Below are positions 50,729 through 52,165 of a stretch of 64,000 nt of DNA, piece after piece. Location: NCBI RefSeq assembly GCF_003334335.1, contig NZ_QOWQ01000002.1; one strand, written 5' to 3'. The notes beneath the pieces were generated by a model. That model made no database searches. It was given only the letters and a program-made list of their open reading frames with translations, and was not told the origin of the DNA. The translations under genes were made by a program, and so were the position numbers. Position 1 is the first letter of the stretch, and each line of letters begins with the position of its first letter. This stretch comes from Escherichia coli. GTDB taxonomy: Bacteria; Pseudomonadota; Gammaproteobacteria; Enterobacterales; Enterobacteriaceae.

Positions 50729-52165
50729 ATGAATCGTGATTCCTTTTATCCAGCCATCGCCTGTTTTCCGCTGTTACTGATGCTGGCCGGGTGTGCGCCT
50801 ATGCATGAAACCCGCCAGGCGTTAAGCCAGCAAACGCCCGCTGCACAAGTTGACACCGCATTACCCACGGCGCTGAAAAATGGTTGGCCAGACAGCCAAT
50901 GGTGGCTGGAGTATCACGATAATCAACTCACTTCCTTAATTAACAATGCACTACAGAACGCACCGGATATGCAGGTGGCTGAACAGCGCATTCAGCTAGC
51001 TGAAGCCCTGGCGAAGGCAGTTGCCACTCAGGATGGTCCGCAGATCGACTTTTCGGCGGATATGGAGCGGCAAAAAATGTCGGCAGAAGGCTTAATGGGG
51101 CCGTTTGCTCTGAACGATCCGGCCGCAGGTACGACCGGCCCGTGGTACACCAACGGTACTTTTGGCTTAACGGCGGGCTGGCATCTCGATATCTGGGGAA
51201 AGAATCGGGCGGAGGTTACTGCCCGCCTGGGTACGGTTAAAGCACGGGCGGCGGAACGCGAGCAAACCCGCCAATTGCTGGCTGGCAGCGTAGCCCGCCT
51301 GTACTGGGAGTGGCAAACCCAGGCGGCGTTAAACACGGTCTTGCAGCAAATAGAAAAAGAGCAGAACACCATTATCGCGACCGATCGCCAGCTATATCAG
51401 AACGGGATTACTTCTTCAGTTGAAGGTGTGGAAACCGATATTAATGCCAGCAAAACCCGGCAGCAGCTCAACGATGTCGCGGGGAAAATGAAAATTATTG
51501 AGGCACGGTTAAGCGCACTTACAAATAACCAGACAAAGTCATTGAAGCTTAAACCGGTCGCGTTGCCGAAAGTGGCAAGCCAGCTTCCTGATGAACTGGG
51601 GTACTCCTTACTGGCCCGGCGGGCAGATTTGCAGGCGGCGCACTGGTACGTTGAGTCATCGCTAAGCACCATTGATGCGGCAAAAGCGGCATTTTATCCT
51701 GACATCAACCTGATGGCCTTCCTGCAACAGGATGCGTTGCACTTAAGCGATCTGTTCCGTCATTCCGCGCAGCAAATGGGCGTTACGGCAGGCCTGACGC
51801 TACCCATTTTCGATAGTGGTCGTCTTAACGCCAATCTCGATATCGCAAAAGCCGAAAGCAACTTGTCTATCGCCAGCTACAACAAAGCGGTGGTTGAAGC
51901 GGTGAATGACGTGGCGCGGGCAGCCAGTCAGGTTCAGACACTGGCGGAGAAAAACCAGCATCAGGCGCAAATTGAGCGCGATGCCTTGCGTGTGGTAGGT
52001 CTTGCGCAGGCGCGCTTTAACGCGGGCATCATTGCTGGTTCCCGCGTCAGCGAAGCCAGAATCCCCGCGCTGCGTGAGCGGGCCAATGGCCTGTTATTGC
52101 AAGGGCAGTGGCTGGATGCCTCCATTCAACTCACTGGTGCGTTGGGCGGGGGTTACAAACGCTGA
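50729..52165 (+). CDS. mdtQ: Outer-membrane efflux lipoprotein, OMF/TolC-like family; appears intact here
   Basis: 478 aa from internal Met with lipoprotein signal (MNRDSFYPAIACFPLLLMLAGC); uninterrupted reading frame in this window. Confidence 0.85.
   Translation: MNRDSFYPAIACFPLLLMLAGCAPMHETRQALSQQTPAAQVDTALPTALKNGWPDSQWWLEYHDNQLTSLINNALQNAPDMQVAEQRIQLAEALAKAVATQDGPQIDFSADMERQKMSAEGLMGPFALNDPAAGTTGPWYTNGTFGLTAGWHLDIWGKNRAEVTARLGTVKARAAEREQTRQLLAGSVARLYWEWQTQAALNTVLQQIEKEQNTIIATDRQLYQNGITSSVEGVETDINASKTRQQLNDVAGKMKIIEARLSALTNNQTKSLKLKPVALPKVASQLPDELGYSLLARRADLQAAHWYVESSLSTIDAAKAAFYPDINLMAFLQQDALHLSDLFRHSAQQMGVTAGLTLPIFDSGRLNANLDIAKAESNLSIASYNKAVVEAVNDVARAASQVQTLAEKNQHQAQIERDALRVVGLAQARFNAGIIAGSRVSEARIPALRERANGLLLQGQWLDASIQLTGALGGGYKR

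Follow-up and report, generated by a model that had tools for sequence, protein, structure and literature searches.

An intact mdtQ gene for a predicted NodT-family outer-membrane lipoprotein in a close relative of Escherichia coli K-12

Introduction

Three described outer-membrane factors (OMFs) invite comparison with MdtQ of Escherichia coli, namely VceC, TolC and MdtP. The gene of VceC is encoded together with its pump VceAB, which is of the MFS type, and TolC is a non-lipidated protein. The lipobox rule and the +2 sorting rule for lipoproteins are established, and they form the basis on which lipidation and sorting of MdtQ are proposed below. The third system has been assigned in a review as MdtN, the adaptor, MdtO, the pump, and MdtP, the channel. 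Furthermore, the FUSC-type pump AaeAB is listed as 'AaeAB-?', with no assigned outer-membrane component (PMC8277102).

The gene mdtQ is described in a 2025 review as core-conserved in spite of its pseudogene label in K-12. According to the same source the function of MdtQ 'has not been elucidated' and the promoter of the gene lacks experimental confirmation. Here we describe the mdtQ locus in a stretch of 64,000 nucleotides from E. coli (contig NZ_QOWQ01000002.1 of assembly GCF_003334335.1), which is referred to as the window throughout.

Results

The mdtQ reading frame

The mdtQ locus of the window holds one open frame only, which the ORF list gives as 50639..52165 on the plus strand, with 508 amino acids counted from a TTG codon. 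From an in-frame ATG at 50729 it comprises the coding sequence listed in Table 1 with zero internal stops or frameshifts, and both the coordinates and the codon count agree exactly with the uninterrupted 478-codon frame claimed in a preliminary description of this DNA. The same ATG is used by RefSeq in near-identical genomes; in strain 300709 the CDS at 3130-4566 of the compared locus (L003) corresponds to 50729-52165 of the window. A convincing Shine-Dalgarno sequence is not visible upstream of mdtQ.

The 508-residue MdtQ starting at the upstream TTG, with an extension encoded by 50639-50728, is annotated in some NCBI records. This form was rejected as the real product: the MdtQ profile aligns from the ATG at 50729, and it is also disfavoured by the position of the signal peptide, which would sit buried 30 residues from the N-terminus.

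Table 1 Features of the mdtQ region of the window
Feature	Position	Strand	Basis and remarks
yohP, 27-aa small membrane protein, divergent neighbour	50422..50505	-	ORF; related-genome annotation
AT-rich intergenic region yohP-mdtQ, presumed mdtQ promoter region	50506..50728	.	between divergent genes
mdtQ (formerly yohG) CDS	50729..52165	+	478 codons + TGA stop, intact; ORF, NF008524, two Pfam OEP repeats, strain 300709 annotation
Predicted lipoprotein signal peptide (residues 1-21) and lipobox L19-A20-G21-C22	50729..50794	+	sequence pattern
A5 run, codons K50-N51	50876..50880	+	pairwise alignment; K-12 (MG1655, JM109) has A4, giving the b2139 frameshift
T not A, codon 94 CTG (Leu) vs CAG (Gln)	51009	+	alignment with K-12 and strain 300709; rare
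T, K-12 G (GGT vs GGG, Gly475, synonymous)	52153	+	alignment; strain 300709 identical here
yohF (SDR oxidoreductase)	52218..52979	+	ORF, annotation; 52 bp downstream of mdtQ

The frameshift of K-12 and the distribution of the two alleles

In MG1655 the gene (b2139, 2227323-2228758) is annotated as 'pseudogene' and measures 1436 bp versus 1437 bp in the window, and the copy of JM109 is annotated as 'frameshifted'. Pairwise alignment of the window with K-12 gave three differences in all, i.e. the indel in the A-run and the substitutions at 51009 and 52153; the T at the latter position is common to the closest natural isolates. The pseudogene annotation follows from the 1-bp deletion in the A-run, which leaves a peptide of 69 residues after which the A4 frame ends, and the remainder of K-12 mdtQ is open in the +2 frame, without a signal peptide. 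That the MG1655 locus is a disrupted pseudogene had been put forward in the preliminary description; annotation and alignment both bear this out, the MG1655 copy being broken by the 1-bp deletion in the A5 run and the window copy intact, so that the opposite outcome, an equally intact MG1655 locus, did not arise.

Of the 5,426 complete E. coli genomes compared, 5,421 contain mdtQ DNA, with a coverage of the query of at least 80% in 5,391. The two states of the A-run were counted with 32- and 33-mers centred on the run, for which megablast requires an exact 28-mer, so that the exact allele alone can match. The 33-mer of the intact A5 allele was found in 4,933 of the 5,426 complete genomes (91%) and the 32-mer of the frameshifted A4 allele in 355, while 138 genomes match neither probe and stand outside both classes. 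Among the A4 matches listed (60), 59 genomes are of K-12 size (4.5-4.8 Mb) and mostly named K-12 laboratory strains; the derivatives among them include MG1655, BW25113, DH1, DH5alpha, JM109, MC4100, C600, S17-1 and others. The one exception among the listed genomes is the stool isolate EcN_Sk (NZ_CP172017.1, 5.05 Mb), whose mdtQ pseudogene (11868-13303 of the compared locus, L008) is 100% identical to the MG1655 copy and whose flanks are merely 99.4-99.6% identical to K-12. Therefore, the A4 allele is not strictly limited to records of K-12 laboratory strains.

The A4 frameshift is a derived lesion restricted to a lineage, and the window keeps the ancestral state. A sequencing error as the origin of the extra A was rejected, A5 being the majority allele (4,933/5,426). 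The exact 478-residue protein of the window is deposited at NCBI (EGE1609936.1, HAH2855784.1, HFN7584161.1, MDK2487753.1) and is encoded by at least 22 contigs. An intact mdtQ is the ordinary state and the norm of the species, as the literature already records, and the oddity is K-12 rather than the window.

The Leu94 allele

The 33-mer with T at 51009 occurs in just 2 of the 5,426 complete genomes, strains A29 and EC2001 (around position 20017 of the compared loci, L006 and L007), and their mdtQ haplotype is 14-15 nucleotides away from that of the window. The presence of CTG-94 on two haplotypes implies that the mutation recurred or that a small tract was moved by recombination. In an alignment of 104 homologs column 94 varies (Ala 23, Leu 16, Gln 13), with Phe in VceC, and because of this variation across the family the exchange Gln94Leu is very probably neutral. 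An inactivating effect was rejected as unlikely, since Leu is the second commonest residue in this variable column.

Relation of the window to MG1655

On MG1655 the window maps to the reverse strand, from about 2,279,487 down to 2,215,500. The alignment of 59.8 kb contains 58 mismatches and 2 indels, and 13 differences fall within positions 1-57393. From about 58,046, inside bglX, SNPs are dense, and 59859-64000 is 97.6% identical to MG1655; this jump in divergence (to about 2.4%) looks like a recombination boundary. Besides the A-run of mdtQ, the second and last indel is a T missing inside psuT (MG1655 2256556, about 22931 in the window), by which psuT is split into the ORFs 22153..22950 and 22935..23402. 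A 33-mer spanning this deletion had zero matches in the 5,426 complete E. coli genomes, and the lesion is therefore either a frameshift confined to the source strain or an artefact of sequencing. As a 1-nt deletion relative to MG1655 the psuT frameshift is real, as the preliminary description had it, and its claim that the source is not reference MG1655 stands on this deletion together with the mismatches, the indels and the divergent last 4 kb.

Among complete genomes, 40000-64000 of the window is matched best by natural isolates, which came from fresh water, pigs, humans and vegetables. Furthermore, a draft assembly of a non-K-12 strain (GCA_002190205.1, L011) is 100% identical over the 11.9 kb of overlap (50310-62165), mdtQ included. 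Judged by these alignments, the source of the window appears to be a natural isolate, phylogroup-A-like and closely related to K-12, which never lost the A.

The predicted MdtQ protein

The protein matches the MdtQ equivalog model of NCBIfam (NF008524) with 1020.7 bits against a cut-off of 650, residues 1-478 being aligned to profile positions 1-478. It also belongs to the NodT family of outer-membrane-factor lipoproteins (TIGR01845), with 273.4 bits above a cut-off of 210.05. The second-best NCBIfam model is that of the MdtP family (NF007390), for which the score of 353.2 bits stays below the cut-off of 597 and thus marks a paralog rather than a member; likewise, the score of 53.3 bits for the TolC subfamily (TIGR01844) stays below 225.15. 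Two repeats of the Pfam family OEP (PF02321) cover residues 69-266 and 293-473.

The N-terminus reads MNRDSFYPAIACFPLLLMLAG followed by C, with the lipobox LAGC at residues 19-22. Cys22 is invariant across the alignment of 104 homologs, which reaches down to about 27% identity. Cys22 is predicted to be the lipidated first residue of mature MdtQ, and Ala at +2 to direct sorting to the outer membrane.

An AlphaFold2 model of the monomer, computed with the 104-homolog alignment, has a mean pLDDT of 89.4 and a pTM of 0.86. Strands are placed at 105-116, 139-153, 325-336 and 348-357, together with long helical hairpins whose helices comprise about 67 residues. The model can be assigned with confidence to the canonical layout of an OMF protomer of the VceC/OprM/CusC type. 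In a Foldseek search of the PDB the top matches were VceC, CusC, SilC, CmeC, OprN and OprM, with E about 1e-23 and target-normalised TM-scores of 0.78-0.87, and VceC is also the closest solved structure in a sequence comparison (1yc9, 5e-40). A lipoprotein signal peptide and TolC/OMF-like sequence had been read from the DNA beforehand, and a search for the lipobox and a structure prediction had been suggested as checks; the LAGC motif, the two OEP repeats, the NodT score above cut-off and the OMF strands and helices of the model all agree with that reading.

By homology with such proteins, MdtQ would be exported by Sec, would receive its lipid at Cys22 and, as expected for Ala at +2, would reach the outer membrane. 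In a trimer, the four beta-strands of each protomer would form a 12-stranded barrel and the helical hairpins a periplasmic tunnel, which would dock onto the tip of a periplasmic adaptor and its inner-membrane transporter encoded elsewhere. Lipidation, trimerisation and channel function of MdtQ are what we infer from these similarities.

Neighbourhood and regulatory region

The order dusC-yohP-mdtQ-yohF-yohD is the same in the window, MG1655, JM109, strain 300709 and Salmonella, and in Salmonella the order dusC-yohP-mdtQ-yohF-yohD-yohC-pbpG is kept. A YohF-like SDR also follows an MdtQ ortholog of 59% identity, yohF is absent from the E. albertii locus (L024, 6001-8050), and the yohF of E. coli EC2001 (L007, 21226-21987) has an internal stop. 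A scan of 50000-53100 for promoter and terminator consensus sequences gave counts no higher than in shuffled sequences, with no sigma-70-like site in the intergenic region 50506-50728 and no terminator-like site in the 52-bp gap between mdtQ and yohF. From this arrangement a co-transcript of mdtQ and yohF is possible.

The interval between dusC and yohP contains a GC-rich repeat at about 50092-50366 which yields spurious ORFs, e.g. 50091..50351 on the minus strand. The repeat corresponds to TRIP1c (PMC10888264), and in EcN_Sk the TRIP1c element is inverted, with 88% identity.

Selection and expression

Between E. coli phylogroups dN/dS of mdtQ (Nei-Gojobori) is 0.09-0.15, and the values are 0.036 versus E. 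albertii and 0.065 versus Salmonella, where dS is saturated (range 0.03-0.08 for both). These ratios indicate that the gene has been under long-term purifying selection. MdtQ was quantified in the proteome of a porcine E. coli isolate, where treatment with paeonol raised it along with MarA and MarR (PMC12584432), and YohG was identified in a proteomic study of outer-membrane and exoproteins of Klebsiella pneumoniae ST258 (PMC4404324). In some isolates of Salmonella Typhi and Paratyphi A, mdtQ carries independent truncations (PMC9241588), and the gene therefore seems dispensable in some niches. Taken together, the dN/dS values of 0.03-0.15 and the published proteomic detection argue that mdtQ is probably functional, and they agree with the cautious suggestion of the preliminary description that the source may express a working channel.

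Pump genes beside paralogs of MdtQ

Neither in the window nor in any relative examined was an adaptor or pump gene found near mdtQ, and a partner of MdtQ is therefore expected to be encoded elsewhere, in accordance with the earlier supposition that the channel serves an efflux system encoded at another locus. The survey for possible partners covered the gene neighbourhoods of the nearest non-orthologous relatives of MdtQ from a representative search, of which four, all paralogs, were informative. In two of them (P0141 and P0143, 42% and 36% identity to MdtQ, respectively) a YtcA gene, an AaeA-like adaptor and a FUSC permease are followed by the OMF. This layout is presumably that of the ytcA-mdtNOP operon of E. 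coli. In P0139 (42% identity) an MdtO-like permease (331 bits) precedes the OMF gene, and in P0145 (39% identity) an EmrB-like MFS permease and an EmrA-like adaptor flank it. An RND pump lies beside none of these four (0/4). Three further relatives are located on short contigs: P0140 shows a single TetR-like gene and P0135 a single YohF-like SDR, both downstream, and P0146 shows nothing informative.

Discussion

The data as a whole are explained best, and with high confidence, by an ordinary, ancestral and intact mdtQ, a core gene encoding an OMF lipoprotein of the NodT family, with a derived loss in K-12. A K-12 laboratory strain in which slippage had turned A4 back into A5 would also carry an intact frame. 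The 57 kb with just 13 differences from MG1655 would suit such an origin, as homopolymer runs are prone to slippage; however, a block of about 6 kb from about 58 kb on is only 97.6-98% identical to K-12, the T at 52153 is common with natural isolates, the non-K-12 draft assembly is 100% identical over 11.9 kb and isolates from the environment and from animals match best among complete genomes, which makes reversion extremely improbable. Another reading takes the frame to be intact without consequence, the gene being unexpressed or dispensable in E. coli. It agrees with a function and a promoter that the review leaves unestablished, with the lack of a clear promoter or Shine-Dalgarno sequence upstream, with the good growth of K-12 without mdtQ, with the independent truncations in Salmonella Typhi and Paratyphi A and with the loss of the larger part of the gene in some 30 E. 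coli genomes (coverage of 80% or more in 5,391 of 5,421). Against it stand the dN/dS of 0.03-0.15 across Escherichia and Salmonella as a sign of sustained purifying selection, the A5 allele kept in 91% of genomes and the protein detected by proteomics in both E. coli and Klebsiella, and we regard a silent relic as very unlikely.

For an ordinary, functional mdtQ the question of the partner arises. The lead tentatively followed here is a pump other than RND, a partner of the FUSC/PET type (MdtNO- or AaeAB-like) or of the MFS type (EmrAB-like) being possible and likelier than an RND pump. It rests on the paralog neighbourhoods, on MdtP as the best paralogous model and on VceC as the best structural relative. 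On the other hand, MdtQ might be a backup of TolC through which RND pumps (AcrAB, AcrEF, MdtABC) discharge. According to Foldseek the likeness of its fold to the RND-associated OMFs OprM, OprN and CusC is about as strong as that to VceC, the match to OprJ can be added to these, and the description of the NodT-family model is generic. Yet the four informative paralog neighbourhoods hold FUSC or MFS pumps and in no case RND, the best PDB sequence match is VceC of the MFS-type VceAB, and the closest paralog in E. coli is MdtP of MdtNOP, so that a role as RND duct appears unlikely. Within the non-RND reading one could go further and propose that intact MdtQ is the missing outer-membrane duct of the FUSC-type p-hydroxybenzoate pump AaeAB, a speculation which we consider improbable as it stands. 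If it were true, the link between AaeAB and MdtQ would have been overlooked because nearly all efflux genetics of E. coli uses frameshifted K-12. In any case, the neighbourhood survey provides a concrete and testable lead towards a FUSC- or MFS-type partner over RND.

K-12 is a natural mdtQ mutant, and efflux work in K-12 is hence unable to reveal a role of MdtQ. In a review, 'mdtQ null mutants' are cited with increased drug susceptibility. Phenotypes of an 'mdtQ deletion' from K-12 backgrounds need re-examination. The published null-mutant phenotypes reportedly come from K-12-type strains, in which the gene is already broken, and for this reason they are weak evidence for function. Should the null mutants have a K-12 background, their susceptibility would have to be explained otherwise, e.g. 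by polarity on yohF. Suitable material for finding the partner and the substrates of this orphan channel are intact alleles like that of the window, or K-12 with the A repaired.

Comparison with known systems

The orthologous locus b2139 of MG1655 is 99.8% identical to the mdtQ of the window at the DNA level and differs by one A fewer in the A-run as well as by one nonsynonymous and one synonymous substitution. MdtQ of the non-K-12 strain 300709 (WP_001078139.1) is encoded at the same locus and has the same length, with 477 of 478 residues identical and Gln94Leu as the sole difference; a further intact MdtQ (YohG) outside K-12 is that of O157:H7 (Q8X659). Among solved structures, VceC of Vibrio cholerae (1yc9) is the best match to MdtQ, with a target-normalised TM-score of 0.87, yet only about 26% of the residues are identical, and VceC has a pump of its own in VceAB, while MdtQ is an orphan. 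TolC of E. coli (1ek9) has the overall channel-tunnel fold in common with MdtQ (E = 1e-13, TM-score about 0.7, about 13% identity), but MdtQ, unlike TolC, possesses a lipobox. The closest paralog within E. coli is MdtP, and both show the NodT lipoprotein architecture; MdtP, however, is the outer-membrane factor of the FUSC-type ytcA-mdtNOP system, whereas mdtQ stands alone, with no adaptor or pump gene adjacent.
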